Positions 23,608 through 41,359 of a stretch of DNA of 64,000 nt are shown here, one piece after another; within the stretch, counting starts at the first letter, position 1; each line of letters begins with the position of its first letter. The stretch spans positions 32,106 to 96,105 of the forward strand of contig CAJTTU010000002.1 of the NCBI GenBank assembly GCA_910579325.1, read 5' to 3'. A program made the translations under genes and the position numbers. The stretch is from an uncultured Lachnospiraceae bacterium. GTDB lineage: Bacteria; Bacillota; Clostridia; Lachnospirales; Lachnospiraceae. The notes below the pieces were generated by a model. It did no database searches. It was not told where the DNA came from and saw only the letters and a program-made list of their open reading frames with translations.

Positions 23608-24168
23608 ATGTACACAACGGAGCGTTTTGAAACCACGGTTCCGGTTTCGGAATACGTAAAGAATTATGTGGATGTAGACACATTCCTGGAATGCTGCAAG
23701 GCATGTCCTAATTATGAAAAGGTGTGGTCCTGTCCGCCTTATGATTTTGACGTTTTGACGTATTGGAACGAATATACGACGCTGGAGCTGACGGCGGTGA
23801 AGATTGTGTTTGATGAGGAATATGCGGGAAAGGTGTTTTCACAGGAAGAGCTGCGGGAGATAATGGCGGCTTCTCTGGGAAAGGTGAAGCAAGCGCTTTC
23901 GGAGGAACTGTTTGAACGGGAGCAAAAGACGCCGGGCAGTATCAGCCTTTCGGCAGGGCCCTGCCTGCTGTGTAAGGGGAATTGCGGCCGAAAGGAAAAT
24001 GAACCATGCCGGTTCCCGGACAGGATGCGCTATTCCATCGAGTCTCTGGGCGGAAATGTGGGGCTGACTTTAAACAAGCTGATGGGGATCGAGCTGGAAT
24101 GGATGGAGGAAGGGAAGCTGCCCCGTTATTTTGTGCTGGTGTGTGGACTGCTGCGTCAGGGGGCATAA
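23608..24168 (+). CDS. DUF2284-like predicted metal-binding protein
   Basis: GAAGGAGG lies 7 nt before the ATG at 23608. Contains CCKACPNYEKVWSCPP and CLLCKGNCG...EPCRFP cysteine motifs. Confidence 0.7.
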   Translation: MYTTERFETTVPVSEYVKNYVDVDTFLECCKACPNYEKVWSCPPYDFDVLTYWNEYTTLELTAVKIVFDEEYAGKVFSQEELREIMAASLGKVKQALSEELFEREQKTPGSISLSAGPCLLCKGNCGRKENEPCRFPDRMRYSIESLGGNVGLTLNKLMGIELEWMEEGKLPRYFVLVCGLLRQGA

Positions 24169-24339
24169 ATATAACAAAATCCTGAAAAAAATACAGGAAC
24201 TGACCATCGTTTTATTGACTTTACAGGGCAATACCCTTATAATGTTAATACTTGTAATGTCGCAAAGAAGCGGTGTAACATCTGCGAATTTGTGATATTT
24301 TTTTGCAGCACAGTAAACTTCAGAGGAGGAAAAAGAAAT

Positions 24340-25320
24340 ATGAAGCATTCTATGAAAAAGCTGACAGCGTTTCTGTTAGCCATGATTTGCGTATGTGCGA
24401 TGACCGCCTGCGGTTCCAAAGGGGATACGCCTGCCACGACTGCGGCGAACCAGGAAACCGGCGGCGCAGATGCCAAGGAGACGGCGCAGGAAGCGGGAAC
24501 GACCGCTGCGGCAGGAGAAGCGGACACGAAGGCAGCGGAAGATGACGGCACCACAGCGGCAGCGGAAGACGGAAAAGTATTAAAAGTCGCCATGGAGTGC
24601 GGCTATGCGCCTTATAACTGGACCCAGCCCACGGATGCCAACGGCGCGCTGCCGATTTCCGGAAGCTCTGATTTCGCTTACGGATATGACGTGATGATGG
24701 CAAAGCATATCGCGGACAAGCTGGGGTATGAGCTGGAAATTGTGAAGCTGGACTGGGATTCCCTGGTTCCTGCCGTACAGTCCGGTACCGTTGACTGCGT
24801 AATCGCGGGACAGTCCATTACCGCGGAGCGGATGCAGTCCGTAGATTTCACGGAGCCTTATTACTATGCTTCTATCGTGACGCTGGTAAAGAGCGACGGA
24901 AAATATGCGGATGCGGCCAGCGTTGCCGATCTGAAAGGGGCGACCTGTACCTCACAGCTGAACACCGTATGGTATGATGTCTGCCTGCCTCAGATTGAGG
25001 AGGCGAATATTCTGCCCGCTCAAGAATCTGCTCCGGCTATGCTGGTGGCGCTGAATTCCGACAGATGCGATCTGGTAGTGACGGATATGCCCACCGCTAT
25101 GGCGGCCTGCGTGGCTTATCCTGATTTTAAGCTGCTGGACTTCTCCGATACGGAGGGCGCTTTTGAGGTTTCCGAAGAGGAAATCAATATCGGTATCTCT
25201 TTACAGAAAGGAAATACGGAGCTGAAGGATGCCATCAACAGCGTTTTGGCAGAGATGACGCCGGAGGACTACACGAAAATGATGGATGACGCCATCTCCG
25301 TGCAGCCTTTGTCTAACTAA
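24340..25320 (+). CDS. Amino-acid ABC transporter substrate-binding lipoprotein
   Basis: Lipobox MTAC|GS, a low-complexity linker, then a family-3 SBP core (LDWDSLVPAVQSGTVDCVIAGQSITAERM). Confidence 0.85.
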   Translation: MKHSMKKLTAFLLAMICVCAMTACGSKGDTPATTAANQETGGADAKETAQEAGTTAAAGEADTKAAEDDGTTAAAEDGKVLKVAMECGYAPYNWTQPTDANGALPISGSSDFAYGYDVMMAKHIADKLGYELEIVKLDWDSLVPAVQSGTVDCVIAGQSITAERMQSVDFTEPYYYASIVTLVKSDGKYADAASVADLKGATCTSQLNTVWYDVCLPQIEEANILPAQESAPAMLVALNSDRCDLVVTDMPTAMAACVAYPDFKLLDFSDTEGAFEVSEEEINIGISLQKGNTELKDAINSVLAEMTPEDYTKMMDDAISVQPLSN

Positions 25321-25543
25321 TTAAAGAAATTTAATCCGGGTGGACACAGACGCATTATGTGATATGCCCTTTGGGTATTCATGGGAGCAGCTGTGTCCGC
25401 TTTTGTTACGATCGTATCCGGAAAGCAGCGCCGCACCATTATGATTCAGGACAAATTTTTTTGCCTGATCTGAACGGTAAGGTATGTTGCGCCGAATTTT
25501 ATGCGGCGTTATATACGGCCGGATTTTAAAAAGGAGTACAGTC

Positions 25544-26344
25544 ATGAGTTTGCCACAGGATTTTATGGGAAGAATCGGTTATCTTCTTTCCATGTACGGC
25601 GAATCCTTTCTGATCGGAGCAGGCAAGACGATGATTATTGCCCTGGTGGGCACCCTGATCGGCTGCCTGATTGGATTTGCCGTCGGCATCGTGCAGACGA
25701 TACCGGTTTCAAAAGAAGATCACATCGTAAAACGAATTCTGTTGTGGGGCATAAAACTGATTTTAAATATTTATGTGGAAGTGTTCCGGGGAACGCCCAT
25801 GATGGCCCAGGCCATGTTTATCTATTTTGGGGCGTCCGCTATTTTTCATTATAATATGTCGACATGGTTCGCCGCGTTTTTCATTGTGTCCATCAATACC
25901 GGGGCCTACATGTCCGAGACAGTGCGGGGCGGTATTCTTTCCATCGATCCGGGCCAGACGGAGGGAGCGATGGCCATCGGCATGACCCACGTACAGACGA
26001 TGATGAATGTGATTCTGCCTCAGGCGCTGAGAAATATTATGCCCCAAATCGGCAATAACCTGATTATCAATATCAAGGACACCTGCGTTTTGTCCATTAT
26101 CGGCGTGGTGGAGCTGTTCTACACGACCAAGGGCGTGGCGGGAGCGCTGTATACGTATTTTGAGGCATTTACCATTGCCATGGTCATTTACTTTATTCTG
26201 ACCTTTACTTGTTCCCGGATTCTGCGGTTCTGGGAGAGCAAGCTGGATGGCCCGGACAATTATGACCTGGCCACCACGGATACGCTGGCTCATACCAGCG
26301 GTATGTACAGATACCCGGATACCAGAAAGGGGGAAGATGCGTGA
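25544..26344 (+). CDS. Amino-acid ABC transporter permease (His/Glu/Gln/Arg/opine family)
   Basis: [17 protein letters not shown], the EAA-like loop [32 protein letters not shown], and an AAAGGAG RBS. Confidence 0.85.
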
Positions 26345-27084
26345 GTGACGGCAATATTTTGGAAATTCATCATTTGAGCAAAACCTTCGGCAAAAATGTG
26401 GTGCTGCGGGATATCGACTTTTCGGTGAAGCCAAAGGACGTGACCTGTATTATCGGGGCTTCTGGTTCCGGAAAATCCACGCTGCTGCGTTGCGTCAATC
26501 TGCTGGAGACGCCTACCTCGGGACAGATTCTGTACCACGGGGCCGATATCACGGACCGGAAAATGAATGCCCCCGCTTACCGGGCGAAGGTGGGAATGGT
26601 ATTTCAGAATTTTAACCTGTTCAGCAATATGACCGTACTGGATAACTGTATGGTGGGCCAGGTTAAGGTGCTGAAAAAAGATAAGGCCGAGGCCAGGAAA
26701 AATGCCATGATGTTTCTGGAAAAGGTAGATATGGCTCCTTATATCAACGCAAAACCCAGACAGCTTTCCGGCGGCCAGAAGCAGCGGGTGGCCATCGCCA
26801 GGGCGCTGGCCATGGAGCCGGAGCTTTTGCTGTTTGATGAGCCTACCTCGGCGCTGGACCCCCAGATGGTGGGCGAGGTACTAAGCGTCATGCGGGCGCT
26901 GGCGAAGGAGGGGCTTACGATGATCATCGTGACCCATGAGATGGCCTTTGCCCGGGATGTGTCCAGCCATGTGGTGTTTATGGCGGACGGCGTGATTGTG
27001 GAAGAAGGAAAGCCGGAACAGATTTTTGAAGCGCCCAGGAATCAGCGGACCCAGGAATTTTTAAGCCGTTTCCGTCAGGGTTGA
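26341..27084 (+). CDS. Amino-acid ABC transporter ATP-binding protein
   Basis: Walker [10 protein letters not shown], signature [15 protein letters not shown], Walker [16 protein letters not shown] start overlaps the permease stop. Confidence 0.9.
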
Positions 27085-27343
27085 CAGAAGCAGGTGTTTT
27101 GTGGTAAGATAAGGATACCAAAAAAATACAATATAAAAGGTGAATCCAAAGAAGCTTCTGCGGATAAACCTTGGAAAAGATCTTAAATTTTTGCGCTGAG
27201 TGGATGATGATATGTTCGGAGTCGGAAGGCAGAAAGGCAGAGAAGCCGCCGCGAATCGTGGGGTGGATTTTCTGTAAAGGGTCCAGCAGGAGTGTGCCTG
27301 TGGCACATTTTGTTGGGTTGTTCTGTGATACATGGAATTATGG

Positions 27344-27373
27344 AAGCCTTCACCATTTGGTGAGGGCTTTTTT
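27344..27373 (+). terminator. Intrinsic terminator inside the long intergenic region upstream of the nif-like operon
   Basis: aagccttcacc pairs with ggtgagggctt (11 bp including one G-U), with a 4-nt loop, then TTTTT. Confidence 0.7.
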
Positions 27374-27414
27374 GTATCATAGGAAAGTCCTCCGAACTTT
27401 CCTATGATACAAAA
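27370..27414. repeat. Palindromic repeat element, full copy
   Basis: ttttgtatcataggaaagt-cctccga-actttcctatgatacaaaa is a perfect 19-bp inverted repeat. Its arms are shared with 59693-59738 and 884-906. Confidence 0.85.
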
Positions 27415-27626
27415 ATGCTCCGCAAGGATGCACACGCAAACGCAGAGGAAGTTGTCGCTTGAAAGCGACGCGTTCACAGTGTGCGCTATTGCACTAAGCT
27501 CGAAAAAACCTCGCTAAGTGCAATATGTGTGCGGCGCAGAATCCTGCGAAGCAGGCTTCCTATTTTATGATTGAAAGAGTCTCTCCGGGCAAGCAGTCGT
27601 TTCAGCTTCATTTGGGAGGAACAGAG

Positions 27627-28394
27627 ATGATCAAGATAGCGGTATACGGAAAAGGCGGAATCGGCAAGTCCACCACGGTTTCCAACCTGGCGGCGGTGTT
27701 CGCGGAAAACGGGATGACGGTGATGCAGATTGGCTGCGACCCGAAAGCGGACTCCACCTTTAATCTTCATGGCGGGATGAAAAAACAGACGGTACTGGAG
27801 CTGATCCGGGAAAAGGGAAAGGCAGTTACGCTGGAAGAGATGGTGACGGCGGGTTATAAAGGTGTCTTATGTGTGGAGGCCGGCGGTCCGGTGCCGGGCA
27901 TGGGATGCGCGGGCCGGGGCATTATCGCCGCGCTGGAAACGCTGGAGGAAAAGGACGCGTTCCGGATTTACAAGCCGGATATCGTTCTTTATGATGTGCT
28001 GGGCGACGTGGTATGCGGCGGTTTCGCCATGCCGATTCGGGAGGGATATGCCGAGAAGGTATTTGTGGTGACTTCCGGCGAGAACATGGCCATTTATGCG
28101 GCGGCCAACATCGCTATGGCGGTGGACAATTTTGCGGAGCGGGGCTACGCTACTTTAGGCGGTATCATCTTAAACCGCAGGAATGTGGAGCGGGAGACCG
28201 AGAAGGTGGAGGAGCTGGCGAAGGACATTCATTCACAGATTACGGGGACGCTGGAATTCAGCTCTGTGGTACAGAAAGCGGATGAACAGCGCAAAACAGT
28301 GATAGAGGCTTTTGGAGACAGCGACATGGCGGGGCAATACAGAACTTTGGCAAAGCAGGTACTGGAAGCCTGCGGAAAGGGCGGCAATGATTGA
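27627..28394 (+). CDS. NifH-like ATPase / Fe-protein homolog (nitrogenase-like reductase component)
   Basis: [23 protein letters not shown], and the cluster cysteines in GCAGRGI and [18 protein letters not shown]. Confidence 0.85.
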
Positions 28395-28425
28395 TTTAAG
28401 GAATCCTGACGCAAAGGGAGCGCAA

Positions 28426-29715
28426 ATGACAATAAAGGATGCCGGATCGCTTACCCCTTTTGACAGCGGCGTGGAATATTCCGCGCCGGCCAGAGGGCCC
28501 TGGAATATCGTGCATGTGGGTACGCTGGTTCCGGAAAGCCACCAGGTTTTTGTATGCGCCCAGAGCTGTCTGCGGGGCGTGGTGCTGACGGCGGCGGAGA
28601 TGAACGCCATGGACCGTTTTTCCACAATCGCCATCCAGGAGCGAAATATCTTAAAGGGCGATATGGAAAAGCTGATAATAAACGGCGTAACGGATATATT
28701 GAATAAACTGCCGAAGCTGCCCCGGGCGGTGGAGGTGTTCAGCAGCTGCATTCATGATTTTATCGGCTGCGATATGGAATTCGTATTCGGAAAGCTGCGG
28801 CGGGAATTCCCTAACGTGGATTTTACCGATTGCTATATGACGCCGATTTTGCGGAAAACGAAATTTACGCCGGACGCGAAAATGCGTCAGCAGCTGTACA
28901 GTCTTCTAAAGCCGGTTCCCCTGGAAGAAAAAATGGTTAATGTGGTGGGGAATCTGGAGCCTTTCTATGAAAAGTGCGAGATTCTTTCCATGCTGGAACA
29001 GGGAGGCTGGCAGCTGCGGGATATCAATTATTGCGGCGATTACGACGAATATCAGAAAATGGCGGCCAGCAGCGTCAATATCGTGACCCAGTCCGACACA
29101 TTGTCGGCCGGGGAGGCGCTGGAACAGCGGCTGAAGCAGAAGCTGCTCTATCTGCCTGTCTCCTATCGTTATGAGGAAATCGACGGGGAGCTTAAGCTGG
29201 CGGCCGAAACCATGGGACTGCCGCTGCCGGATTTACAGGAGTTAAAGAATCGAACGGATCAGGCGCTGGCCCATGCGGCAGAGGTTCTTGCCGGGATGCC
29301 GGTGGCCATCGATTTTAACGCTACCACCAGACCTCTGGGACTGGCCAGGCTGCTGATCTCCCACGGTATTCGGGTGATTACGGTTTACGCCGACAGCTTC
29401 GGGAAGGAAGAGGAACCGAATTTTTACTGGCTGAAAGAGCATGCGCCGGAGCTGAAAATCAGCGCTACGGTTCATGGAAAGATGGTGGTGCTTCCCAGAA
29501 ACGAGGCGGAGCAATATGGAGGAAGGCTGCTGGCCATCGGTCAGAAGGCGGCTTACTTTACCGGGACCAGGCATTTCCTGAATATGCTGGAAAACAGTGG
29601 ACTTCACGGCTATGAAGGAATCATCCGGCTGGCCCGGTGGATGGAAGAAGAGGCGGTCAGAGAGCAGGATGTTCCTTCGATTATTCAGGTAAAGGGATGG
29701 GGGTGCTGCGGATGA
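28426..29715 (+). CDS. Nitrogenase component-1-type oxidoreductase, NifD/E-like subunit
   Basis: Sits after the NifH-like gene. Cys-containing segments VCAQSCLRG and SSCIHDFIGCD. Start at 28426 follows AAGGGAG, with an alternative ATG at 28387. Confidence 0.65.
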   Translation: MTIKDAGSLTPFDSGVEYSAPARGPWNIVHVGTLVPESHQVFVCAQSCLRGVVLTAAEMNAMDRFSTIAIQERNILKGDMEKLIINGVTDILNKLPKLPRAVEVFSSCIHDFIGCDMEFVFGKLRREFPNVDFTDCYMTPILRKTKFTPDAKMRQQLYSLLKPVPLEEKMVNVVGNLEPFYEKCEILSMLEQGGWQLRDINYCGDYDEYQKMAASSVNIVTQSDTLSAGEALEQRLKQKLLYLPVSYRYEEIDGELKLAAETMGLPLPDLQELKNRTDQALAHAAEVLAGMPVAIDFNATTRPLGLARLLISHGIRVITVYADSFGKEEEPNFYWLKEHAPELKISATVHGKMVVLPRNEAEQYGGRLLAIGQKAAYFTGTRHFLNMLENSGLHGYEGIIRLARWMEEEAVREQDVPSIIQVKGWGCCG

Positions 29716-30965
29716 GACAGGTATCGAGAGTGCTGTCCACCTATACGGCGGATGTGTCGGGGGTCTGCTCGGCGCTGTATGAGATGGGCGGTATGGTGAT
29801 TATGCATGACGCCTCCGGCTGTAATTCTACATACAATACCCATGACGAACCCCGCTGGTACGATATGCCCAGTATGGTATATGTTTCCGGGCTGTCGGAG
29901 CTGGAGGCGGTGATGGGGGACGATGATAAGCTGCTCCGGGATGTGGAGCGGGCGGCGAAGGAGCTGCATCCCCGTTTCGTGGCCATTGCCGGCACGCCGA
30001 TTCCCATGATGATGGGGACGGATTTTAAAGGGATTGCCAGGCTGTTAGAGCGCAGGCTGGGGATTCCGGTATTCGGGTTTGCCACCAACGGCACCCATTC
30101 TTATGTGTCCGGTGTCGGGATGGCGCTGGCTCAGGCGGCGAAAAAGTTCTGTCTGCCGAAGGAGCAGCTGTCAGGAGCAGACGGAGGTCAGAAGCCTTGT
30201 GTAAACCTTCTGGGCGTAACTCCTCTTGATTTCTCCGTGACAGGCAATGTGGAGGCGTTAAAAGAGGTTTTTCAGTCTGAGGGATATCAGGTGAAAAGCT
30301 GCTGGGCCATGGGAAGTGATTTCGAAGCGCTGATCCGGGCCGGCGAAGCCGATGTGAATGTGGCGGTGTCCGTGGCCGGGATTGAGACGGCGATAGTTTT
30401 GGAAGAAATGTATGGGACGCCATGGGTTCTGGGGCTTCCGGTAGGGCCGAAGCTGACCCGCAGGGTACTGGAAGCGGTGGACCTGGCGTCGGCTACAGGA
30501 AAGAATCAGCTGCCGCTGGCGTTGGCGACAGACGGGGTGGACGGAAAAACGGAACGAAACCACCGGCAGACTTACATTATCGGCGAGTGGGTCTGGGCTA
30601 TGGCTCTGCGCTGCAGCCTGATTGCGGAGTACGGATATGACAGGGTATCGGTGATCTGCCCGCTGGAATCAGAAGAGTTGTTTGCGGACCGCCTGCTGAC
30701 AGGACGGGAAGAACGGATTTCGGGTGTGCTGGATGCCGCCGTCCGGGCCGGAGCATTTTTGGAGGATGAAGACCAGATCGAAGAACGGCTGAAGGATGCC
30801 GAACTGGTAATTGCAGACCCTATTTACCGCAGAGCGCTGCCGAAGGACAGGGCGGTGGACTTTATCGAATTTCCCCATGAGGGATATTCGGGGAGGATTT
30901 ACCGTAAGGATATTCCGGTATTTATCGGAGAGCAGTGGAATCAGTGGTTTGAAAGTAGAGAGTAA
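29712..30965 (+). CDS. Nitrogenase component-1-type oxidoreductase, NifK/N-like subunit
   Basis: ATGA overlap with the upstream gene. VIMHDASGCNSTYNTHDEPRW and FVAIAGTPIPMMMGTD are typical of the family. Confidence 0.65.
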   Translation: MRQVSRVLSTYTADVSGVCSALYEMGGMVIMHDASGCNSTYNTHDEPRWYDMPSMVYVSGLSELEAVMGDDDKLLRDVERAAKELHPRFVAIAGTPIPMMMGTDFKGIARLLERRLGIPVFGFATNGTHSYVSGVGMALAQAAKKFCLPKEQLSGADGGQKPCVNLLGVTPLDFSVTGNVEALKEVFQSEGYQVKSCWAMGSDFEALIRAGEADVNVAVSVAGIETAIVLEEMYGTPWVLGLPVGPKLTRRVLEAVDLASATGKNQLPLALATDGVDGKTERNHRQTYIIGEWVWAMALRCSLIAEYGYDRVSVICPLESEELFADRLLTGREERISGVLDAAVRAGAFLEDEDQIEERLKDAELVIADPIYRRALPKDRAVDFIEFPHEGYSGRIYRKDIPVFIGEQWNQWFESRE

Positions 30966-30984
30966 AATAGCGGCGGACCTGAAG

Positions 30985-31034
30985 AGGGGAGTTGCGGAAC
31001 TAAAACAGCAACGGACCGTACAGGCCCCGGGAGG
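30985..31034. repeat. Operon-junction repeats B1 (30985-31003) and A1 (31006-31034)
   Basis: B is aggggagttgcggaactaa. A is cagcaacggaccgtacaggccccgggagg. Identical copies occur elsewhere in the operon. Confidence 0.9.
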
Positions 31035-31086
31035 ATTTACAGACACTTTAGTGGCTGGAAATTCTCCCAGTTCAAGGGGGCCTGGA

Positions 31087-31105
31087 AGGGGAGTTGCGGA
31101 ACTAA
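31087..31105. repeat. Operon-junction repeat B2
   Basis: 19/19 identical to 30985-31003, and 17 nt upstream of the SBP start codon. Confidence 0.9.
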
Positions 31106-31121
31106 TTTAGGAGTAAAGGTA

Positions 31122-32378
31122 ATGAAAAAGCGAATGAAACAATGGATAGCATGTTTACTGGTTCTGTCTCTGACAGCGGTGGCGCTGGCAGGCTGCTCGG
31201 GAAACGGAGGCGGTAAGGAGACCCAGGCGCCGGTGCAGACGAAGGGGACGGAGGCGGCAACCGGGGCCGCGAATGAAACGGCGGATGTGGAAGCGACAAC
31301 GGCGGGAACCGAGGCAGGATCGGAAGCAGCGGCGAATGGCCAGGAGGGCCAGATCGTGGTGACAGACCATGCCGGGCGTCAGGTAACTCTGCCGGCGGAG
31401 ATCAACCGGGTAGTGGTTGCGGATATTTACCCGATGGCGTCGGTGATCACCGTATACTTAGGCTCTGCCGAGAAGCTGGTGGGAATTCATCCCGTATGTA
31501 TGAGCGCGGCGAAAAGCGGTCTTCTGGGAGAAATCTTCCCTGAGATTCTGGAAGCGGACACCAGTTTTATGACGGGCAGCGACCTGAATGTGGAACAGCT
31601 TCTGAATCTGGACCCTGACGTGGTATTCTGCGGCGCGGGCAATTCCGAGCTGATGAGCGCCCTGGAGAATGCCGGAATCCCGGCGGTGGGCGTTTCTCCC
31701 AGCAAATGGCAATATGACATTCTGGAAACCTATGATCAGTGGGCAGCTCTGCTTGGCCAGATGTTCCCGGAGAGCGACAAGAGTAAAGAAATTTCCGCTT
31801 ACAGTCAGGAAGTATATGACATGATTCAGGACAGGGTAAAGGACATCCCGGAGGAAGATAAAAGGGATATTCTGTTCCTGTTCCAGTATGACGATCAGGA
31901 AATCGTGACTTCGGGTAAAAGCTTTTTCGGCCAGTTCTGGTGCGAGGCCGTAGGCGGCAGAAATGTGGCGGAGGTAGTCGAAGCCGATAATTCCAATGCG
32001 ATTATCAGTATGGAACAGATCTATGAGTGGGACCCGGAACTGATTTTCGTGACGAATTTCACCTCGGTTCAGCCCGATGACCTTTACAAGAATGCCATTG
32101 GCGGCGACGATTGGAGTACGGTTACGGCCGTAAAAGATAAGGAAGTATATAAACTGCCCCTGGGCAGCTACAGAAGCTATACGCCCAGTGCGGATACGCC
32201 CGTAACCCTGCTCTGGATGGCCCAGAAGGTGTATCCTGATCTGTTTTCCGATATCGATATGACCCAGGAGGTAAAAGACTACTATCAGGAGCTTTATGGG
32301 ATTCAGCTGACTGACGAGCAGGTAGAGCGGATGTACAATCCTTCGACGGAAGGCTCGGGAAATACAAATCATATTTGA
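31122..32378 (+). CDS. ABC importer substrate-binding lipoprotein, FecB/BtuF (iron-chelate / corrinoid) class
   Basis: Lipobox LAGC|SG and a T/A/E-rich linker. The core (VVVADIYPMASVI..., DPDVVFC, WDPELIFV) is typical of periplasmic-binding-protein family 2. Confidence 0.8.
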   Translation: MKKRMKQWIACLLVLSLTAVALAGCSGNGGGKETQAPVQTKGTEAATGAANETADVEATTAGTEAGSEAAANGQEGQIVVTDHAGRQVTLPAEINRVVVADIYPMASVITVYLGSAEKLVGIHPVCMSAAKSGLLGEIFPEILEADTSFMTGSDLNVEQLLNLDPDVVFCGAGNSELMSALENAGIPAVGVSPSKWQYDILETYDQWAALLGQMFPESDKSKEISAYSQEVYDMIQDRVKDIPEEDKRDILFLFQYDDQEIVTSGKSFFGQFWCEAVGGRNVAEVVEADNSNAIISMEQIYEWDPELIFVTNFTSVQPDDLYKNAIGGDDWSTVTAVKDKEVYKLPLGSYRSYTPSADTPVTLLWMAQKVYPDLFSDIDMTQEVKDYYQELYGIQLTDEQVERMYNPSTEGSGNTNHI

Positions 32379-32434
32379 TGACAGGGTATTCTGGCAGAGT
32401 CGTGTCAAGTGACGTATGAAAAATCAGCAATGAT

Positions 32435-32481
32435 CAGCAACGGACCGTACAGGCCCCGGGAGGGGAACTGCGGAACTGTAA
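32435..32481. repeat. Operon-junction repeats A2 (32435-32463) and B3 (32461-32481, variant)
   Basis: A2 is 29/29 identical to A1. B3 is aggggaactgcggaactgtaa. Confidence 0.9.
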
Positions 32482-32497
32482 ATAAAAGGGAAATGGA

Positions 32498-33502
32498 ATG
32501 AAAGGTAAAGAAAGAATCTGGGCCGCGGCCATGACCGCGGCGGTCATCATACTGGCGGTTCTGGCGATGACCATGGGGCGGTATCACATATCCGTACGGG
32601 AGATTCTTGCGGTGGTGTTTCCCGGTCTGATGCCGGGCGTGGAAGTGTCCGATACGATGCGGACCGTAATCTTTAATGTCCGTATCCCCCGGGTGCTGCT
32701 CTCACTGCTGGCCGGCGCCGGCATGGCTGTGGCCGGCGCTGCCTTTCAGGCATTGTTTTCGAATCCGCTGGCTACGCCGGATACGCTGGGGGTAGCCACA
32801 GGCGCTTCTTTTGGAGCGGTGCTGGGGATTCTGTGGGGGCTGCCCTCCATGATGGTGCAGGGCTCGGCTCTGGCGATGGGCATTCTGGCGGTGGTTCTGG
32901 TGTATACGCTGAGCTATAGCCGGGAGCAGTCTATCATTATGGTGGTTCTGGCCGGCATGGTGATCGGCGCCCTCTTTTCGGCGCTGGTATCTCTGGTAAA
33001 GTATGTGGCTGACCCGCAGGATATGCTGCCTGCCGTTACCTTCTGGCTGATGGGAAACCTGTCAGGTACCCGCCGGGAAAGCCTGTTGCTGGGAGCGCCG
33101 CTGATTCTGACCGGGATTTTCGTGATCTGGCTGCTTCGGTGGAAGCTGAATGCCATGACGCTGCCGGAGGACGAGGCGAAAGCGCTGGGCATTCCGGTAA
33201 AGCAGATCCGGTATGCGGTGATCGCGTCGGCGGCCATGATCACGGCCTCCGTGGTGTCCATGTGCGGGCTGATTCAGTGGGTGGGTCTTCTAATTCCCCA
33301 TGTGGCCAGGATGATTTTTGGAAATGACAACCGGAGCGTGATACCGGCCAGTCTGGGGCTGGGAGCGATTTTTATGGTGATCATCGATACGGTGGCCCGA
33401 TGCGCCACCGCCTCGGAGATTCCGGTATCGATTTTAACGGCGGTGATCGGCGCGCCGGTGTTTATCATATTGCTGAGAAAGACAGGAGGGATTAAGCTGT
33501 GA
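32498..33502 (+). CDS. FecCD/BtuC-family ABC permease
   Basis: RIPRVLLSLLAGAGMAVAGAAFQALFSNPLATPDTLGV is the family signature region. About 9-10 TM segments. Confidence 0.85.
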   Translation: MKGKERIWAAAMTAAVIILAVLAMTMGRYHISVREILAVVFPGLMPGVEVSDTMRTVIFNVRIPRVLLSLLAGAGMAVAGAAFQALFSNPLATPDTLGVATGASFGAVLGILWGLPSMMVQGSALAMGILAVVLVYTLSYSREQSIIMVVLAGMVIGALFSALVSLVKYVADPQDMLPAVTFWLMGNLSGTRRESLLLGAPLILTGIFVIWLLRWKLNAMTLPEDEAKALGIPVKQIRYAVIASAAMITASVVSMCGLIQWVGLLIPHVARMIFGNDNRSVIPASLGLGAIFMVIIDTVARCATASEIPVSILTAVIGAPVFIILLRKTGGIKL

Positions 33503-34287
33503 AATTCGAAGTGAAAAACGGAGCCTTCGCTTACGGAAGAAAGAAACGTGTTTTCAACAATGTCAGCTTTACGCTGGAAGAACCGCAGATTTTGTCCGTC
33601 CTGGGGGCGAACGGAGCCGGAAAGACCACAATGATGCGGTGTATGCTGGGGCTTCTGCCCTGGACCGAGGGTGCTTCTTATCTGGACGGAACGGACATTC
33701 GCCGCATCCCCTCAAAAAAACTGTGGAAAACCATTGGCTATGTACCCCAGGCGAAGCTGTCCTCCTTTGTGTATACGGTGGAGGAAATGGTAGTTCTCGG
33801 CCGCAGCAGTCATTTGGGACATTTCGGACAGCCGGGGAAAAAGGACTGGGAGATCGTGGAGGAATGCCTGGAGATGACAGGCATCGCCCATTTAAGAGGA
33901 AAACTGTGCAGCCGTTTAAGCGGCGGCGAGTTTCAGATGGTCATGATTGCCAGGGCGCTGGCGGGGGAACCGTCTCTGCTGGTGCTGGATGAACCGGAAT
34001 CCAATCTGGATTTTAAAAACCAGCAGGTGGTGCTGGAGACGATTCGCGGTCTCTGCGAACAGCGGGGGATCGCCGCGATCATCAATACCCATTTTCCGGA
34101 GCATGCGCTGGAAATTTCCCATAAATCGCTGCTCCTGTTTTCCGACGGCACCGCATTGGCAGGAGAGACTGCCCAGGTGATCACGGAAGAGAATATGACC
34201 CGGGCTTTTGACATTAACGTCCGGATTCGGGACGTCCAGGTGGCCGGAAGAGGGCATACCTGCGTGTTCCCGGTGCTGAATGCGTGA
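33499..34287 (+). CDS. Iron-chelate/corrinoid-type ABC ATP-binding protein
   Basis: GANGAGKTT, LSGGEFQMVMIARAL, LLVLDEPESNLD. GTG start overlaps the permease stop. Confidence 0.85.
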   Translation: MKFEVKNGAFAYGRKKRVFNNVSFTLEEPQILSVLGANGAGKTTMMRCMLGLLPWTEGASYLDGTDIRRIPSKKLWKTIGYVPQAKLSSFVYTVEEMVVLGRSSHLGHFGQPGKKDWEIVEECLEMTGIAHLRGKLCSRLSGGEFQMVMIARALAGEPSLLVLDEPESNLDFKNQQVVLETIRGLCEQRGIAAIINTHFPEHALEISHKSLLLFSDGTALAGETAQVITEENMTRAFDINVRIRDVQVAGRGHTCVFPVLNA

Positions 34288-34467
34288 AAGCGGGAAGCCG
34301 GTAAAAATTGATAATGGCAATACACTCCAAACATATATGGAAAGGCTCTCCCATACCGGGGAGCTTTTCTGTTTTATGGGACACTGCGTCACAGGAGAAC
34401 AGGGGAGGAGTTGTATTTTCAGCGGCGGTATGTTACAATCATTGGCAGTGGCAGCATTGAGTGAAAA

Positions 34468-34553
34468 ACAGCAGCGGACCGCAGTATAGAATAGTAAGCG
34501 GCTCCAAAAGAGCCGTTACGTGCTTAAAGCGATGGAGGGTAGCTGCGGAATTT
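34468..34553. repeat. Degenerate A3 (34468-34486) and B4 (34534-34553) junction repeats
   Basis: acagcagcggaccgcagta and ggagggtagctgcggaattt resemble the A and B units. A hairpin cggctc-caaaa-gagccg lies between them. Confidence 0.55.
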
Positions 34554-34568
34554 ATGTGGGAGGCAGAC

Positions 34569-35264
34569 ATGATAGAGGTTGACCGGATCAGCAAGGCATA
34601 TGGCCGCAGGCAGGTGCTGTCTCAGATTTCTTTTCATATTGAGGCGGGGCAGTGCGTGGGTATCGCTGGCGCCAATGGGTGCGGGAAATCCACGCTGCTG
34701 GCGATTCTGGCAGGGGCTATGAAGCCGGACGGAGGAAAAATTCTGTATCAGGGAAAACCTGTGGACAACGGGCGATACAGGAGAGAAACAGGGTATGTCC
34801 CCCAGGGAAATCCACTGCTGGAAGAACTTACCGTACAGGATAATCTGAAATTATGGTATAAAGGTAGCGAAAAGGAATGGAAACGGGAGCGGGATTCTGG
34901 TATAATAGCAGTACTGGAGCTGGGGCCGCTGTTAAAAACGGCCGCAGGAAAGCTGTCAGGCGGCATGAAGCGGCGTCTGAGCCTGGCCTGCGCCCTGGTT
35001 AACCATCCCCGGTTTCTGATTCTGGACGAGCCGGGGGCGGCGCTGGACGTGGTGTGCAAGGAGGAGATCCGACAGTATCTTGCGGATTACTTAAAGCAGG
35101 GAGGCACGGCGCTTATGACCAGCCACGAGGAGCGGGAGCTGTCCCTGTGCGACCGGCTGCTTTTGATGAGCGGCGGCAGGCTGAAACAGATTCCGGCCGA
35201 TACGCCGGCCAGAGAGCTGGCGGTTATGATTGTGGCCGGGAGGACTGTAGCGGAACTAAAATAG
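34569..35264 (+). CDS. ABC transporter ATP-binding protein (ABC-2 exporter type)
   Basis: GANGCGKST, LSGGMKRRLSLACAL, FLILDEPGAALD. GGGAGG RBS before the ATG at 34569. Confidence 0.8.
   Translation: MIEVDRISKAYGRRQVLSQISFHIEAGQCVGIAGANGCGKSTLLAILAGAMKPDGGKILYQGKPVDNGRYRRETGYVPQGNPLLEELTVQDNLKLWYKGSEKEWKRERDSGIIAVLELGPLLKTAAGKLSGGMKRRLSLACALVNHPRFLILDEPGAALDVVCKEEIRQYLADYLKQGGTALMTSHEERELSLCDRLLLMSGGRLKQIPADTPARELAVMIVAGRTVAELK
35238..35261. repeat. Junction repeat B5 (gggaggactgtagcggaactaaaa), overlapping the last codons of the ABC ATPase
   Basis: Shares the gcggaactaa core and the upstream ggga with B1-B3. Confidence 0.7.
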
Positions 35265-35277
35265 GGGGAATTGCAAT

Positions 35278-36930
35278 ATGGATGAAACAAACGGAATGAA
35301 CAGTATGGAAAACAGTACGGTAACACCTTACGAGGGAGTATCCCCGGATTTATTTGAACCGCCGAAAAACAATAAGAAAAAATGGCTTCTGGCCGGCGGC
35401 GCGGCGGTGATTCTGATTGCGGTGATCGGGGTCATAGCAGTGGCAGGTTCTTTCTTTTTTCAGAACAGCCAGAAAAGGTTTGTGACGGCGCTTGTAAAAG
35501 CCATGACCAGCGCGCCCGAAGAGTCGGAGGACCTGTTCGGCTTTGAGCAGATGGCCGAGGCGGTGAAAGAGACGCCCTATCATTACGGCGGTTCTCTGGT
35601 GCTGGAGGACAGCAATCTCACCGATCTGGCGGCATTCAGCGGACTGGGATTTTCGGCGGAGATCGGCGTGGACTATAATACGGAACGGCGCGGTATGGCC
35701 GAGTTTATGGTATCTTACGGCGGCATGGATGTGGCAGGGCTTTCTTATTATCTGGACCCCAAAGGGCTTGCGCTGTTTCTGCCGGGGCTGTCGGAACGCC
35801 TTCTGGAATTGGATTATCAGGAGGGCTTTGAACAGCGGCTGTATTCGTCTTACATGATGGAAAGTATGGGAATGGATCAGTATGAGATGGAAGAATTTGC
35901 CGCTATGCTGATTGCCGTGAGGGAAATGATGGAAGGGGCAGAGACGGCGGAGCAGACCGGCTCCCAAGAAATCGCGAAACGTTTTCAGAATACGGTGGAT
36001 CTGGCAAAGCGGCTGGAAGATGAAATGGAGGTTGAGCGCTCCGACAGCAAAAGCTTTACCATAAACGGAAAGGAAACCACCTGTACCGGATACACGGCCG
36101 TTATTTCCCATGACACGCTGATGGCCATGTTTGAGGATGTGAAGGATTTTATTGTGGCGGATGAAGAAGCCGGACAGATGGTATATGAGTTTATGAGCCA
36201 GATGGATGTGCTGACGGGGGGCGGCCTGATCAGCGGGGACAGGGAAGATCTGGAAGCGGATCTGGATCGTCTGCTGGACCGTCTGGACGAGTCTTTTGAT
36301 GACATTAAAATGAAGGGCTATATCGACCATTCCGGAAATATGGCTTCTCTGACCATAGAGACTGGTTTTGAAGCTGACGGGGATCAGGTGGATTTCAGTG
36401 AGGAAATCCTCTTTAAAGGCGGTTCTTATCTGGCGGAGAACATGGAAGTTACCGTGGAAATGGACGACGGCTACAGCGATGTGGAATGTAAAGTGACCAG
36501 AGAGGGCAGCACGGAGGATGAAGTAACGGATACATCATACAAGCTGTCTGTGCGGGTAGACGGAGAGAAGCTTCTGACTTCCACCTTTGGCAGTACCCTG
36601 AACCGGGATACGAAGGAAGCCTCCATGGATGCCATGATCAGGGCTGACAGTATGTATGTTTCTCTGGACATGAAAGCGGACGGCGTATTTGATCAGATCG
36701 ACAAAGGAAAAGGCTTCCATTTTGATATGGATAATCTGCGGCTGCGGGCGGTGGGCGCCACGCTGAATTTCTCCGGCGAGGTGTACTGCGGACCGATGGA
36801 TGCCCTTGAGAAGCCGGAAGGGGAAACCTTTGATATGCTTACGGACAGCGAGATGGACTGGGAGATTCTGGCCATGGAGATTGTCGATAAGCTGTACGAA
36901 CTGGAAGACAAGCTGGAGCTTGGCTGGTAA
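35278..36930 (+). CDS. Membrane-anchored hypothetical protein (550 aa)
   Basis: One N-terminal TM helix (WLLAGGAAVILIAVIGVIAVAG) and a large acidic extracytoplasmic domain. No family recognised. Confidence 0.55.
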   Translation: MDETNGMNSMENSTVTPYEGVSPDLFEPPKNNKKKWLLAGGAAVILIAVIGVIAVAGSFFFQNSQKRFVTALVKAMTSAPEESEDLFGFEQMAEAVKETPYHYGGSLVLEDSNLTDLAAFSGLGFSAEIGVDYNTERRGMAEFMVSYGGMDVAGLSYYLDPKGLALFLPGLSERLLELDYQEGFEQRLYSSYMMESMGMDQYEMEEFAAMLIAVREMMEGAETAEQTGSQEIAKRFQNTVDLAKRLEDEMEVERSDSKSFTINGKETTCTGYTAVISHDTLMAMFEDVKDFIVADEEAGQMVYEFMSQMDVLTGGGLISGDREDLEADLDRLLDRLDESFDDIKMKGYIDHSGNMASLTIETGFEADGDQVDFSEEILFKGGSYLAENMEVTVEMDDGYSDVECKVTREGSTEDEVTDTSYKLSVRVDGEKLLTSTFGSTLNRDTKEASMDAMIRADSMYVSLDMKADGVFDQIDKGKGFHFDMDNLRLRAVGATLNFSGEVYCGPMDALEKPEGETFDMLTDSEMDWEILAMEIVDKLYELEDKLELGW

Positions 36931-36931
36931 G

Positions 36932-38140
36932 ATGAGACAAATCTGCGAATATCAATTTCTTCAGATTAAACGGGCGTTAAAGCTGCTGCCTGCTGTTGTG
37001 GCCGTATCTCTTTTGTTCGGGGTTCTGGCGGCAGGGGCGGCCTTTGGCGGCGCCAGACTGCTGTATCAGGATCAGGCGGCAGGGAGAATTACGGTGGCGG
37101 TCGTGACGGAGGCGGACGACGCTGCGGGGCAGATGGCGCTGTCCATGCTTGGCAGTATGGACAGTGTGGAAAGCATCTGTGATTTTGTGGAGACAACTGA
37201 GCCGGAAGCAAGAGAAGGATTGAAAGGGGGCCGCTATTACGCGGCCCTGTTGATTCCGCCCCGGATGGTGGAAGGGATTATGGACGGCACAAATACGCCG
37301 GTCAGGGTACTCCTTTCCGGACAGGGGGGACTGGAAACGCTGCTTTTGCGGCAGCTGACAGAGTCCGGCGCCCAGATGCTTGACGCGGCCCAGGCCGGAA
37401 TCTACGCGGCTGACTTTTACTGTGGGGAGCAGGGGATGGAACAGCTGATTCCCCAGGTAGAGCTGTTTTTAAATAAGGTTTATCTGGATTACGCGATGAA
37501 CAGGGAAAGCTGGTTTAGAAAGATCACGGTTTCGGCGTTGGGAGAAATGGACCTTTTGGGATATTATGGGACGACAGCGATCGCGCTGCTGCTGTTTCTG
37601 ATGGGCATACCCTGCGCCGCTTTCTGCTGTCGGGAGCCGCTGGCCCTTGATGAAAAGCTGCGGGCAGAGGGCATAGGACCCTGTGTACAGCTCTTGGTGA
37701 AGATTCTGGCGGCAGCGGCGCTGCTTCTGGCTTCCGTGCTGCTTTTGGCCATTCCGGTGTCGGCAGGACTCTCGCGATGGGGGATGCGAAGGCTGGCGCT
37801 GAACGGATATTCGGCGCTCTGCGCAGCGGCGGCTATCCTGGTCTGCGCTTCGGTAATTGTCTTTTGTTTTGAGGCTGCCGGCAGACTGCTGGCGGGGACA
37901 TTGCTGCTGTTTGTCCTGACAGGAGCGTTGATTTTCCTTTCCGGGGGACTTCTGCCCGCAGCGTTTTTGCCCGGGATATTAAGACAGTTCTCATGCTGGA
38001 ATCCGGCGTCGGCGGTCAGAGGGCTGCTGGGGCCTCTGTTCGGATATGGCGTTGGCTGGCAGGCGGGCGCGGCTGCCATTGGCAGTTTTTTTGTGTTTTT
38101 CAGCCTGGGACTTTGGAGCAGGAGACGGATGCGGCAATGA
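36932..38140 (+). CDS. Putative ABC-2-type permease
   Basis: One N-terminal TM helix, a large loop, then about 5 C-terminal TM helices. The start is 2 nt after the upstream stop. Confidence 0.5.
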   Translation: MRQICEYQFLQIKRALKLLPAVVAVSLLFGVLAAGAAFGGARLLYQDQAAGRITVAVVTEADDAAGQMALSMLGSMDSVESICDFVETTEPEAREGLKGGRYYAALLIPPRMVEGIMDGTNTPVRVLLSGQGGLETLLLRQLTESGAQMLDAAQAGIYAADFYCGEQGMEQLIPQVELFLNKVYLDYAMNRESWFRKITVSALGEMDLLGYYGTTAIALLLFLMGIPCAAFCCREPLALDEKLRAEGIGPCVQLLVKILAAAALLLASVLLLAIPVSAGLSRWGMRRLALNGYSALCAAAAILVCASVIVFCFEAAGRLLAGTLLLFVLTGALIFLSGGLLPAAFLPGILRQFSCWNPASAVRGLLGPLFGYGVGWQAGAAAIGSFFVFFSLGLWSRRRMRQ

Positions 38141-39192
38141 AATTAGGATTCTGGTTTTGGCTATGTGTGAAAAGGCAGATCAAAAAGCTGACGTTCTGGA
38201 TGCAGCTGATGATTCTGCCTCTGGCTGCGTTTGTATACAACGGGGCGGCAGGGCGGGAGGAAGGACTTCTTAAAGTGGCGCTGGCGGTGGAGACAGACGA
38301 GACAGGACTTTCTGAGCAGGCGGCCCGGCTGCTGATCTCGCGGGAGGGCCCTCTGAAATTTTACCGCTGCGACAGCAGAGAACAGCTGCTGCGTGACGTG
38401 GAATCCGGACGGGCAGAGTGCGGGTTTGTATTCCGGGAAGGTTTTGGGGAAGGAATTGAGGACGGGGATCTGAAAAAAACCGTTGAGCTGGTTCAGTCCC
38501 CATCCACGGTGGCCGGAGAGCTGGCGGCCGAGTCGGTCAGCGGGGCGGTCATGTCTCTGGTGGGGCCAGATGGCCTGAAGAAACTGGCTTCTCAGGATTT
38601 TTTCCGGCAGTCAGGCGCAGACGCCGAAGGGGCCCGTGTGAGAATGATGGAGCTTTACGACCGGTTTTTAACGGACGGCAGTACCTTTTCCTTTCTTTAT
38701 GAGACGGCTGACGGAACAGAGACAGACCCTCGCCGGTGGGAGCGCCAGGTTTTTCCGGCAAGGGGATTGGGCGCGGTATATATCTGGGCGGCGGCTCTGT
38801 TCGCGGCGGCGGCTGTTTATGGGGATGAAAAAAAAGGGGTTTACGGCAGTATGCCGGGAAGCTGGAAATATGCGGCGGTTTATCTGTCGACGCTGACGCC
38901 GGCGCTGCCGGCGGCCGGCTCCTGTCTGCTGGCGACTGCGCTGTCGGGCGCCTGGACGTCAGCGGGCCGGGAGTTGTCCGCCGTTATACTTTATTCCATG
39001 GCGGCGGCGCTGACGGCGGTTTTGCTGTGGCTGATTGCGCGCCGGGAGAAGCTGTTATGTGCCGTGATTCCGGCGCTGCTGTTCGGCAGCCTGGTGCTCT
39101 GTCCGACTGTGATCGACTTAGGGCAGTGGATTCCGGCCGTTGCCTTTTTACAGAGGCTGTTTCCGCCTTATTATTACCTGGCTTTGTTTTAA
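38137..39192 (+). CDS. Putative ABC-2-type permease, second subunit
   Basis: ATGA overlap with the upstream gene and the same topology pattern. Confidence 0.5.
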   Translation: MKLGFWFWLCVKRQIKKLTFWMQLMILPLAAFVYNGAAGREEGLLKVALAVETDETGLSEQAARLLISREGPLKFYRCDSREQLLRDVESGRAECGFVFREGFGEGIEDGDLKKTVELVQSPSTVAGELAAESVSGAVMSLVGPDGLKKLASQDFFRQSGADAEGARVRMMELYDRFLTDGSTFSFLYETADGTETDPRRWERQVFPARGLGAVYIWAAALFAAAAVYGDEKKGVYGSMPGSWKYAAVYLSTLTPALPAAGSCLLATALSGAWTSAGRELSAVILYSMAAALTAVLLWLIARREKLLCAVIPALLFGSLVLCPTVIDLGQWIPAVAFLQRLFPPYYYLALF

Positions 39193-39312
39193 TATACTTT
39201 TCAAGCGGCAGGATTAATGGTATAATGTCAAAAGACATTATGCCGGTCTATGGCAGAGCGAAGCGTATGTTCGCCCGAAGACATGGCATAGTACCGACAG
39301 AGGTATCCAATT

Positions 39313-41358: not shown

Positions 41359-41359
41359 G

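Follow-up and report, generated by a model that had tools for sequence, protein, structure and literature searches.

Only a small number of nitrogenase-like (NFL) enzymes exist, and unusual chemistry has emerged from every one that has been solved. According to a July 2026 Chemical Reviews article, functions have been assigned only to Nfa, CfbCD, MAR, ISR and DPOR/COR among NFL systems, most NFL clades, including Group VI and most of Group IV, are uncharacterised, and assigning functions to these orphan clades is the main challenge of the field (PMC13474568). Among Firmicutes, Dos Santos et al. (2012) noted nitrogenase-like genes that adjoin ATP-binding cassette (ABC) transporter or hydrogenase maturation genes, and proposed metal transport coupled to cofactor assembly (PMC3464626). 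Beyond this 2012 remark, full-text literature searches turned up no functional assignment, no tie between NFL enzymes and HydE/HydF and no test of such ideas, and the 2026 review does not mention HydE, HydF or HydG (PMC13474568). Here we analyse a locus of this kind in a 64-kb stretch of contig CAJTTU010000002.1 from an uncultured Lachnospiraceae bacterium, hereafter the window, whose nearest public relative is a mouse-gut Lachnospiraceae metagenome-assembled genome (MAG; locus L001, 99% identity). Six intact plus-strand open reading frames (ORFs) between 27627 and 34287 encode, in order, a NifH-like Fe protein, a D-like and a K-like component-1 subunit, a substrate-binding protein, a permease and an ATPase.

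We tentatively read this locus as one operon that joins a two-component NFL enzyme of an uncharacterised clade to its own type II ABC importer, the two serving ATP-driven processing of an imported small metal complex that feeds [FeFe]-hydrogenase cofactor assembly, and we give this reading a probability of roughly 0.4. We suppose that the importer takes up a small species containing metal, for which an iron complex is the likeliest and most economical choice, rather than a tetrapyrrole, because the binding protein falls in the MolA / Helicobacter pylori CeuE / YiuA subgroup. The NFL enzyme would then reduce or rebuild this species using ATP-driven low-potential electrons, and the product would serve H-cluster assembly for [FeFe]-hydrogenase, a role suggested by the nesting of the six genes between hydE and hydF, beside a TM1266 gene, in most other lineages. 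Import would be held back by a TM1266-like domain that senses the ligand in the cytoplasm, and a leader RNA would stop transcription in the presence of its ligand or of the protein that binds it.

The Pfam families of the six products follow the gene order (Fer4_NifH, Oxidored_nitro twice, Peripla_BP_2, FecCD and ABC_tran), so that the last three genes supply the FecCD permease, Peripla_BP_2 protein and ABC ATPase of a type II importer within one operon. As a preliminary description made from the letters of this DNA had proposed, the two short component-1 subunits are translationally coupled, the D stop and K start overlapping in an ATGA at 29712-29715, and the importer genes follow on the same strand. 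The permease and ATPase genes overlap too. We saw no plus-strand terminator-like site between the six genes, and a terminator-like hairpin closes the operon (Table 1).

The NifH-like protein has the hallmarks of a nitrogenase-superfamily Fe protein, namely Walker A (GKGGIGKS), switch I (DPKADS) and switch II motifs and two cluster-bridging cysteines, C94 and C130, which correspond to C97 and C132 of NifH. The P-loop, the switch motifs and both cysteines are 100% conserved across 82 orthologues, bearing out the P-loop and [4Fe-4S] cysteines first noted in the single sequence. Its best solved match, aligned over the full length, is Clostridium pasteurianum NifH (1cp2, 247 bits), and it stays below the cut-offs of the curated models (bits/cut-off: NifH 329/394, CfbC 317/402, BchL 192/345, BchX 170/331). 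To judge from its sequence, the protein carries every motif that MgATP-driven electron delivery from a [4Fe-4S] cluster would need.

We placed the proteins by means of curated hidden Markov model cut-offs together with sequence and fold comparisons to the PDB, and every one of them fell short of the thresholds set for the characterised families (Nif, DPOR/COR and CfbCD). The best curated model for D was NifE, at 23 bits versus a cut-off of 505; K scored 57/505 with NifE, 49/490 with BchB and 29/268 with CfbD (methan_mark_13), and the NifD model, used as a test for dinitrogenase, gave 44 bits versus a cut-off of 654. Against the PDB, a profile of D orthologues yielded 36 bits to NifE, 26 to VnfD, 22 to 9fmg_A (a 519-aa chain labelled only 'Nitrogenase', which we take to be MarD) and 15 to BchN, and K matched NifD (40 bits), NifE (37) and BchB (30). 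An AlphaFold model of D (predicted local distance difference test score 85.8) was about equally close to all superfamily branches in Foldseek, with template modelling (TM) scores of about 0.6 and 14-17% identity to VnfK, AnfK, NifEN, NifDK and BchN (E-values 1e-14 to 1e-11); the D/K pair shares only about 15% identity with any solved nitrogenase-family subunit. Two paralogous PF00148-fold subunits are thus encoded beside the Fe protein, and the pair has the nitrogenase component-1 fold. Since every superfamily branch is matched about equally, the proteins lie in the superfamily but in no characterised clade, which agrees with the placement outside known NFL clades supposed beforehand.

Conservation within the pair narrows down its likely cofactors. 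Invariant residues are H30, C44, C48, C108, H110 and C136 in D, where C427 is 95% conserved, and H32, D33, C37, H44, D45 and E46 in K, where they form the invariant motif H32-D33-x-S-G-C37-N-S-T-Y-x-T-H44-D-E-P-R-W-Y. D C108 aligns on the Cys of the NifE motif CvpaliGdD, the position of NifD C154, and K has Thr-Pro and no Cys where NifD has the Cys of its C154 motif (AGTPIPMMMGTD). At the positions aligned to the Cys that binds the iron-molybdenum cofactor (FeMo-co; NifD Cys275 and its NifE counterpart), Ser or Asn/Pro is found, with no Cys in D or K. Conserved candidate cluster positions are limited to C44/C48 and C108 of D and C37 of K. The ligand set of dinitrogenases (alpha Cys275, alpha His442 and six P-cluster Cys) is therefore not found in the pair, the His442 position lying outside the confident alignments; as aligned, D and K lack a Cys at the FeMo-co ligand position and most P-cluster ligand positions. 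The remaining Cys pattern fits only what would be expected for one interfacial [4Fe-4S]-type cluster, as in NifEN or DPOR, and a site for substrate or metal could be built from the other invariant residues (His, Cys and Asp). Across the 64-kb window, neither PF00148 nor NifH has another homologue and genes for NifB-type radical SAM proteins are absent (two generic radical SAM ORFs lie at distances of 9 and 24 kb), and no nifB, nifE or nifN is conserved among 85 related loci. Two expectations of the preliminary description, that these genes are absent and that the enzyme is no dinitrogenase, accordingly hold, the latter through the missing FeMo-co Cys, the missing P-cluster ligands and the missed cut-offs.

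These ligand data bear on a reading in which the NFL enzyme reduces a small organic or organosulfur nutrient, in the manner of MarBHDK and IsrBHDK, the importer supplies that nutrient and the adjacency to hydrogenase genes is meaningless. Characterised Group IV NFL systems do cleave C-S bonds, and isr genes are co-induced with nearby sulfonate/taurine ABC transporter genes (PMC13474568). At the locus studied here, however, a NifB-like partner is lacking, P-cluster ligands are incomplete, no Cys aligns to the FeMo-co/L-cluster ligand, no conserved sulfur-metabolism gene lies nearby and the importer is of the metal-chelate class rather than Ssu/Tau. The similarity to 9fmg_A, presumably MarD, amounts to only 22 bits. 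Given also that the hydrogenase linkage described below outlasts many rearrangements over three phyla and that the ATPase can be fused to a TM1266-like domain, we regard an organosulfur nutrient as highly improbable.

The binding protein of the importer has a signal peptide, a lipobox (LAGC, residues 22-25) and a low-complexity linker (residues 26-75), and is conserved better than D (65% versus 55% identity to the Blautia hydrogenotrophica orthologues). Its solved relatives take the same rank by sequence and by Foldseek: 4ovk (182 bits), an orphan Veillonella parvula protein of 30% identity, MolA (HI_1472; 85 bits), H. pylori CeuE (66 bits), a Eubacterium eligens orphan and YiuA. MolA of Haemophilus influenzae binds molybdate/tungstate, CeuE of H. 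pylori Ni-(His)2 and YiuA iron with small ligands. Among the conserved residues of the binding protein Tyr, Trp, Arg, Asp and Glu predominate, and beyond the lipobox Cys neither Cys nor His is conserved. Judged by these comparisons, the binding protein groups with the MolA / H. pylori CeuE / YiuA small-metal binders and apparently not with corrinoid or haem binders. Of the Tyr, His and Met that provide the axial ligand pair in haem importers of the IsdE/HmuT type, His is not conserved here but many Tyr are.

This grouping speaks to an alternative close to the one the preliminary description had favoured, in which a tetrapyrrole, corrinoid or large metallophore is imported and reduced as by DPOR/COR/CfbCD, with no hydrogenase link. 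The absence of FeMo-co and P-cluster ligands from D/K and of NifB is what tetrapyrrole-reducing NFL enzymes also show, and the FecCD/Peripla_BP_2 class includes haem and B12 importers, with HmuT at rank 28 of the Foldseek matches (TM 0.53); in some public records the Blautia orthologue bears an automatic name, 'corrinoid ABC transporter substrate-binding protein'. Yet the scores point away from such ligands. The binding protein reaches 22 bits versus a cut-off of 234 with the BtuF model and 37 versus 299 with IsdE, the permease 195 bits versus 461 with BtuC, with the FecC and FhuB models likewise far under their cut-offs. Haem and siderophore binders rank lower among the Foldseek matches of the binding protein, and BtuF is not among the top 50; oxyanions, Ni-(His)2 and iron with small ligands are what its closest characterised relatives bind. 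The operon is under no cobalamin riboswitch in the window or in 9 related loci, so that neither the BtuF score nor the riboswitch expected of a corrinoid importer (BtuFCD) is found, and genes for making or degrading tetrapyrroles are not among the neighbours that recur. The idea of an imported tetrapyrrole or corrinoid thus gains nothing here, leaves the nesting among hydE, hydF and TM1266 genes unexplained and appears to us decidedly unlikely.

The case for a hydrogenase role comes from relatives of the locus. A one-genome-per-species scan returned at least 572 encoded relatives, of which the best 80 loci were fetched, along with six from contig look-ups; the genome matches and thousands of protein clusters make the clade widespread, with many members among human, mouse and ruminant gut bacteria living by [FeFe]-hydrogenases. 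Taxonomically, the relatives span Lachnospiraceae, Oscillospiraceae, Clostridium, Peptococcaceae, Christensenellales, Synergistaceae and Lentisphaeria. We derived architectures for 85 loci from profile searches of all ORFs, clustered the remaining ORFs to find recurrent neighbours, and restricted feature counts to the 36 loci with full flanks. The binding-protein gene (S) directly follows K in most loci, and the permease and ATPase genes (P, A) stand either after it, as in the window (H-D-K-S-P-A), or upstream (P-A-...-H-D-K-S). At L085, from a Merdivicinus MAG, a NUDIX hydrolase gene (12507-12980) lies between the K-like and binding-protein genes.

Three neighbour families recur, identified by NCBIfam scores well above cut-off: HydE (547-577 bits versus 255), HydF (539-577 versus 326) and the TM1266-family putative regulator (Tm; 104-121 versus 61). 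Typical orders are HydE-H-D-K-S-P-A-(HydF)-Tm and Tm-P-A-HydE-H-D-K-S-(HydF), with P-A-HydF-HydE-H-D-K-S and Tm-HydE-HydF-H-D-K-S-P-A among the other permutations. Binding protein, permease and ATPase each occur in 30 of the 36 loci, HydE in 28, HydF in 15, a TM1266-like gene or domain in 30 and at least one hyd marker in 33. The importer linkage, whose conservation the preliminary description had wanted checked, is therefore retained at 30/36 and is often translationally coupled; in B. hydrogenotrophica, all genes from hydE through the ATPase overlap by 4 nt or abut. Because the genes have been reshuffled repeatedly with linkage kept across Bacillota, Synergistota and Lentisphaerota, this pattern argues for functional coupling.

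While the ATPase of the window has no C-terminal TM1266-like domain, in 35 related loci the ATPase is fused to one (PF21699; Table 1), and PF21699 is also found on a 370-aa ATPase at L084, a locus separate from the 35; at other loci the TM1266-like domain is a separate gene adjoining the ATPase gene. Within the domain GRMGxPY is strictly conserved, as are N22, H26, D53, K75 and Y78. The fusion physically ties the so-called iron-only hydrogenase system regulator family (TM1266) to an ABC importer. The importer ATPases MetN and ModC bear regulatory domains; by analogy, the TM1266-like domain may inhibit import as a sensor in the cytoplasm.

A conserved leader lies in front of the operon. From 5' to 3' (27081-27373) it consists of a promoter, a structured motif of about 45 nt and an intrinsic terminator, and the window shares this block with the four loci closest to it, L001-L004, though the upstream genes differ. 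The core consensus, CTGA-N2-3-GAYGATGAT-NN-GTTCGGAGTCRGAAGGC, is present in distant loci too. A covariance model (R1) gave 24 matches in the fetched loci, all on the plus strand and directly upstream of the first gene of the cluster; a second model, R2, added four loci, including B. hydrogenotrophica and two in which the TM1266 gene comes first. In the best-supported fold of the motif, helices P1 and P2 are 100% paired with compensatory changes and are separated by large, highly conserved internal loops. The closing helix YGY/RCR is represented by CG 17 times, UA 5 times, and GC and UG once each; the inner helix is GAY/GUC, with AAC/GUU and GGC/GCC variants in single sequences. Overall, 96% of cells are paired, and 0 of 500 shuffles matched the paired fraction or the covariation score. 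We rejected a first RNAalifold structure, which paired CUGA with UCRG, since that helix has six broken cells and lacks compensatory changes; GAY/GUC, by contrast, pairs in every case and has two such changes.

A strong terminator lies within 170 nt of the motif in 38 of 39 distinct instances. The 5' arm of the terminator, GCCTTC, is complementary to GAAGGC within (C)RGAAGGC, with which the motif ends. The two could therefore pair in an alternative antiterminator, much as attenuators and riboswitches do. No relevant match to the leader came from Rfam 15 (4227 covariance models), either at gathering score, with the whole window and 9 related loci scanned, or at E up to 1 over 27000-34700. An exact-pattern scan of metagenomes produced 19 matches, 17 of which precede hydE or the cluster's nifH-like gene; one of the other two is cut off after the motif and shares the synteny of the window, and the other is likely a chance match. 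The leader is dedicated to the nitrogenase-like/importer cluster, being seen almost only upstream of it. No other gene family was found downstream of the motif in the metagenome scan, and for this reason the leader regulon gives no independent hint on the ligand. We regard the leader as a candidate new riboswitch or protein-dependent attenuator, in which the (GAU)3 repeat could be a protein-binding site.

A further reading turns on the maturases themselves. In it, D/K would be a NifEN-like scaffold or recipient for an organometallic Fe-CO/CN unit from HydE/HydF, or from HypC/D/E/F in the case of a paralogous trio, yielding either a new metalloenzyme, supplied with its substrate by the importer, or a HydG-free route to the H-cluster synthon. 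The trio is flanked by hydE and hydF, and no hydG was found in the 10-kb flanks of 86 loci, where a search of unassigned ORFs of at least 300 aa for the CxxxCxxC motif returned only two unrelated ORFs. A paralogous H'D'K' trio stands beside HypF, HypD and HypE in Clostridium ljungdahlii, C. ragsdalei, C. thailandense and Lentisphaeria, and the invariant Cys, His and Asp residues of D and K exceed what a single [4Fe-4S] cluster requires. However, Firmicutes frequently keep hydG apart from hydE and hydF, and little can be concluded from not finding it in the flanks; there are no maturase genes in the window, and a scaffold alone leaves the need for an importer unexplained. A metallocluster-assembly role had already been raised in 2012 (PMC3464626). 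In C. ljungdahlii, C. ragsdalei and relatives, species with the double trio, a motif-based survey of clostridial acetogens recorded HypCDEF but not HypAB, and nothing that its criteria class as canonical HydG, which is weak evidence for the scaffold; these species did yield atypical HydG candidates, and the nitrogenase-like genes next door go unmentioned in the survey (PMC9431212). On balance, we consider a scaffold unlikely, although together with the tetrapyrrole/corrinoid reading it is a main rival, and it would also account for the HypFDE-linked paralogue and the missing hydG.

Returning to import and processing of a small metal complex for the hydrogenase cofactor, several points weigh against it. 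No hydE, hydF, hydG or TM1266 gene or remnant occurs in the window, where remnants of hydE, hydF and TM1266 were sought by phmmer on the ORFs and by tblastn, including the 280-nt gap after the ATPase gene; the hydrogenase link of this locus would thus come from orthology (55-60% identity, same gene order) and not from the window itself. The importer is missing from some H-D-K lineages (the C. ljungdahlii group, Lentisphaeria), and 4ovk, the closest solved relative of the binding protein, is itself uncharacterised. HydE, HydF and HydG suffice in Escherichia coli, so an NFL enzyme is not required in general. In vitro, too, HydE, HydF and HydG suffice to assemble the H-cluster, in the newest defined system along with glycine-cleavage H-protein and an iron carrier (PMC12752695, PMC12501116). 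Finally, all characterised NFL enzymes with simple [4Fe-4S] clusters reduce tetrapyrroles (PMC13474568). As to the first point, a neighbour-joining tree places the window clade (window and L001-L004) inside the hydE-linked clade, beside Blautia, and the stand-alone state is therefore derived. The window lineage keeps the six genes and the leader and has lost the adjoining hyd and TM1266 genes, and it is this lost adjacency that makes the hydrogenase embedding invisible in the window.

A bolder form of the proposal holds that certain lineages of gut and rumen anaerobes use the NFL enzyme and importer in H-cluster biogenesis, as a part of it that has gone unrecognised, with TM1266-family sensing of the imported species and with a new class of riboswitch-like leader governing the whole unit. 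We think it unlikely enough to be called speculative. One possible version has iron or an Fe-CO/CN unit delivered or pre-assembled, supplementing or replacing HydG. If the hydE/hydF/TM1266 link is functional, it would place a new component in a cofactor pathway thought defined, give the TM1266 family a role, and could bear on the source of iron and diatomic ligands that anaerobes use for hydrogenase cofactors. The leader offers a direct experimental handle, as whatever ligand or protein binds it should reveal what the system works on.

Coordinates are collected in Table 1, which also lists the related loci bearing the leader, the ATPase fusion or a second trio. Two regions bordering the operon were examined and judged unrelated to it: an amino-acid ABC importer upstream (24337-27084) and ABC-2 exporter-like genes downstream (34569-39192). 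Directly 3' of the leader terminator, an inverted repeat may be a second regulatory hairpin or operator; L004 has a hairpin of differing sequence in its place. Between the K and binding-protein genes lies a structured intercistronic element that is not a terminator, since no T-run follows it. Related copies of the element, CAGCARCGGACCG ... GNWGCGGAAYT, occur at 32431-32477, 34465-34555 and 35238-35277, and the copies precede four consecutive start codons, two of them of genes beyond the operon; the core pattern occurs 3 times in the 64 kb, always in the operon region.

Table 1. Features of the operon region, in window coordinates, and related loci sharing selected features.
Feature	Position or loci	Strand	Details
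Sigma-70-like promoter	27081..27110	+	TTGACA, 18 nt, TAAGAT, TG extension; leader start
Conserved leader RNA motif	27183..27243	+	core CTGAGTGGATGATGATATGTTCGGAGTCGGAAGGC at 27196-27230; covariance model R1 71 bits
Leader intrinsic terminator	27346..27373	+	GCCTTCACC-ATTT-GGTGAGGGC then TTTTTT
Inverted repeat, 23 nt, near-perfect	27366..27418	+	96% complementary; directly 3' of leader terminator
NifH-like Fe protein (ATP-dependent electron donor)	27627..28394	+	255 aa; PF00142 301 bits
D-like component-1 subunit	28426..29715	+	429 aa; PF00148 68 bits
K-like component-1 subunit	29712..30965	+	417 aa; PF00148 105 bits
Structured intercistronic element between K and binding-protein genes	30975..31110	+	direct repeats; fold z-score -4.5
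Lipoprotein substrate-binding protein (Peripla_BP_2)	31122..32378	+	418 aa; PF01497 81 bits
FecCD/BtuC-type permease (type II ABC importer)	32498..33502	+	PF01032 276 bits
Importer ABC ATPase	33499..34287	+	262 aa; PF00005 101 bits
Terminator-like hairpin with T-rich tail closing the operon	34348..34373	+	3' of ATPase gene
Leader-bearing loci	L001-L005, L008-L011, L013-L017, L019, L021-L024, L029, L030, L032, L038, L075, L076, L081, L085, L087-L105		
ATPase/TM1266-like fusion loci	L008, L009, L012, L017, L025, L026, L028, L031, L033, L034, L038-L040, L043, L046, L048-L051, L053-L055, L057, L059, L063, L064, L067, L068, L070-L072, L074-L076, L080		
Loci with second, divergent trio	L042, L045, L073, L079 (Clostridium); L065, L066, L069 (Lentisphaeria)		

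Elsewhere in the window, three overlapping ORFs in different frames (22532-23365) resemble a frameshifted ATPase gene and run into an ORF at 23353-24168 with PDDEXK_3 and DUF2284 (predicted metal-binding) domains. The G+C content is 39-46% at 4-24 kb (4001-24000) versus 50-56% at 24-44 kb (24001-44000), and the lower-GC stretch may be acquired DNA. Ordinary Rfam matches are a bacterial large signal recognition particle RNA (59365-59626, plus strand) and a flavin mononucleotide riboswitch (63761-63875, minus strand).

Compared with known systems, the locus most resembles NifEN with NifH in its component-1 fold, its short subunits and its NifH-type ATPase partner: NifE is the best match of D (36 bits), C108 of D falls on the Cys of CvpaliGdD in NifE and the Cys pattern suits one interfacial [4Fe-4S] cluster. 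It differs from NifEN in its low identity (about 15%), in lacking a Cys at the L-cluster/FeMo-co position and a NifB, NifX and NifV context, and in its partners, which are an ABC importer and, in relatives, hydE/hydF instead of nif genes. DPOR (BchLNB), COR (BchXYZ) and CfbCD are likewise NFL enzymes with simple Fe-S clusters and no NifB, and the CfbC score of the Fe protein is close to its NifH score. Unlike them, the locus misses all their curated cut-offs and has no pigment or F430 genes nearby, its hosts are non-phototrophic gut fermenters and acetogens, and, whereas CfbD is homomeric, it encodes two distinct large subunits.

MarBHDK and IsrBHDK (Groups IV-C and IV-F) share with it the use of an NFL enzyme for non-N2 chemistry, and the isr genes their co-induction with nearby ABC importers, but each of them has a radical SAM protein of NifB type, and MAR works with P- and L-type clusters; here the window shows neither a NifB-like gene nor a full set of ligands for such clusters, similarity to 9fmg_A, taken as MarD, is low (22 bits) and no sulfur-metabolism neighbours are conserved. 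Group VI of Elusimicrobia has been described as having a NifH sister to group V, a divergent D/K with at most 4 P-cluster Cys and many radical SAM neighbours, and tetrapyrrole reduction was proposed for it from context (Meheust et al. 2020). Set against that description, our D/K pair is similarly divergent and Cys-poor, but the Fe protein scores far better with NifH/CfbC than with BchL and the sole recurrent radical SAM neighbour is HydE.

On the importer side, MolBC-A (HI1470-72), H. pylori FecDE-CeuE and Yersinia YiuABC have the same permease and ATPase classes, and their binding proteins MolA, CeuE and YiuA share 24-26% identity with ours at target-normalised TM scores of 0.74-0.78; at this low identity the ligand is not transferable, and none of the three is linked to an NFL enzyme. 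With the HydE/HydF/HydG and TM1266 system, the relatives share the placing of their module between true hydE and hydF and the inclusion of a TM1266-family gene or domain. The known maturation pathway, by contrast, contains no NFL enzyme or importer, and hydG was not found in the clusters (10-kb flanks).

The closest description is that of the NifHEN-like clades of Dos Santos et al. (2012), from Coprococcus catus, Dorea longicatena, Clostridium botulinum and others, which matches the locus in its two conserved Cys in the D/E-like and one in the K/N-like subunit, its absence of FeMo-co ligands, its human-gut Lachnospiraceae hosts and its linkage to ABC transporter or hydrogenase maturation genes, sometimes with two linked copies; the identity of the clades is judged from that description only, and the 2012 paper gave no function and left the linkage unanalysed. 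Since both associations were remarked on then, the linkage is not new, though it is still unexplained. Of the interpretation in the preliminary description, an uncharacterised NFL enzyme with a co-conserved importer stands, while a tetrapyrrole or corrinoid substrate gains no support and the hydE/hydF/TM1266 linkage, the dominant genomic signal, had been missed. The system is a widespread yet unexplained variant of the nitrogenase-like kind, to whose earlier description we add how far the linkage to hydrogenase maturation extends and how well it persists, the fusion of a TM1266-like domain to the ATPase, the predicted affinity of the binding protein for small metal complexes and the dedicated leader.

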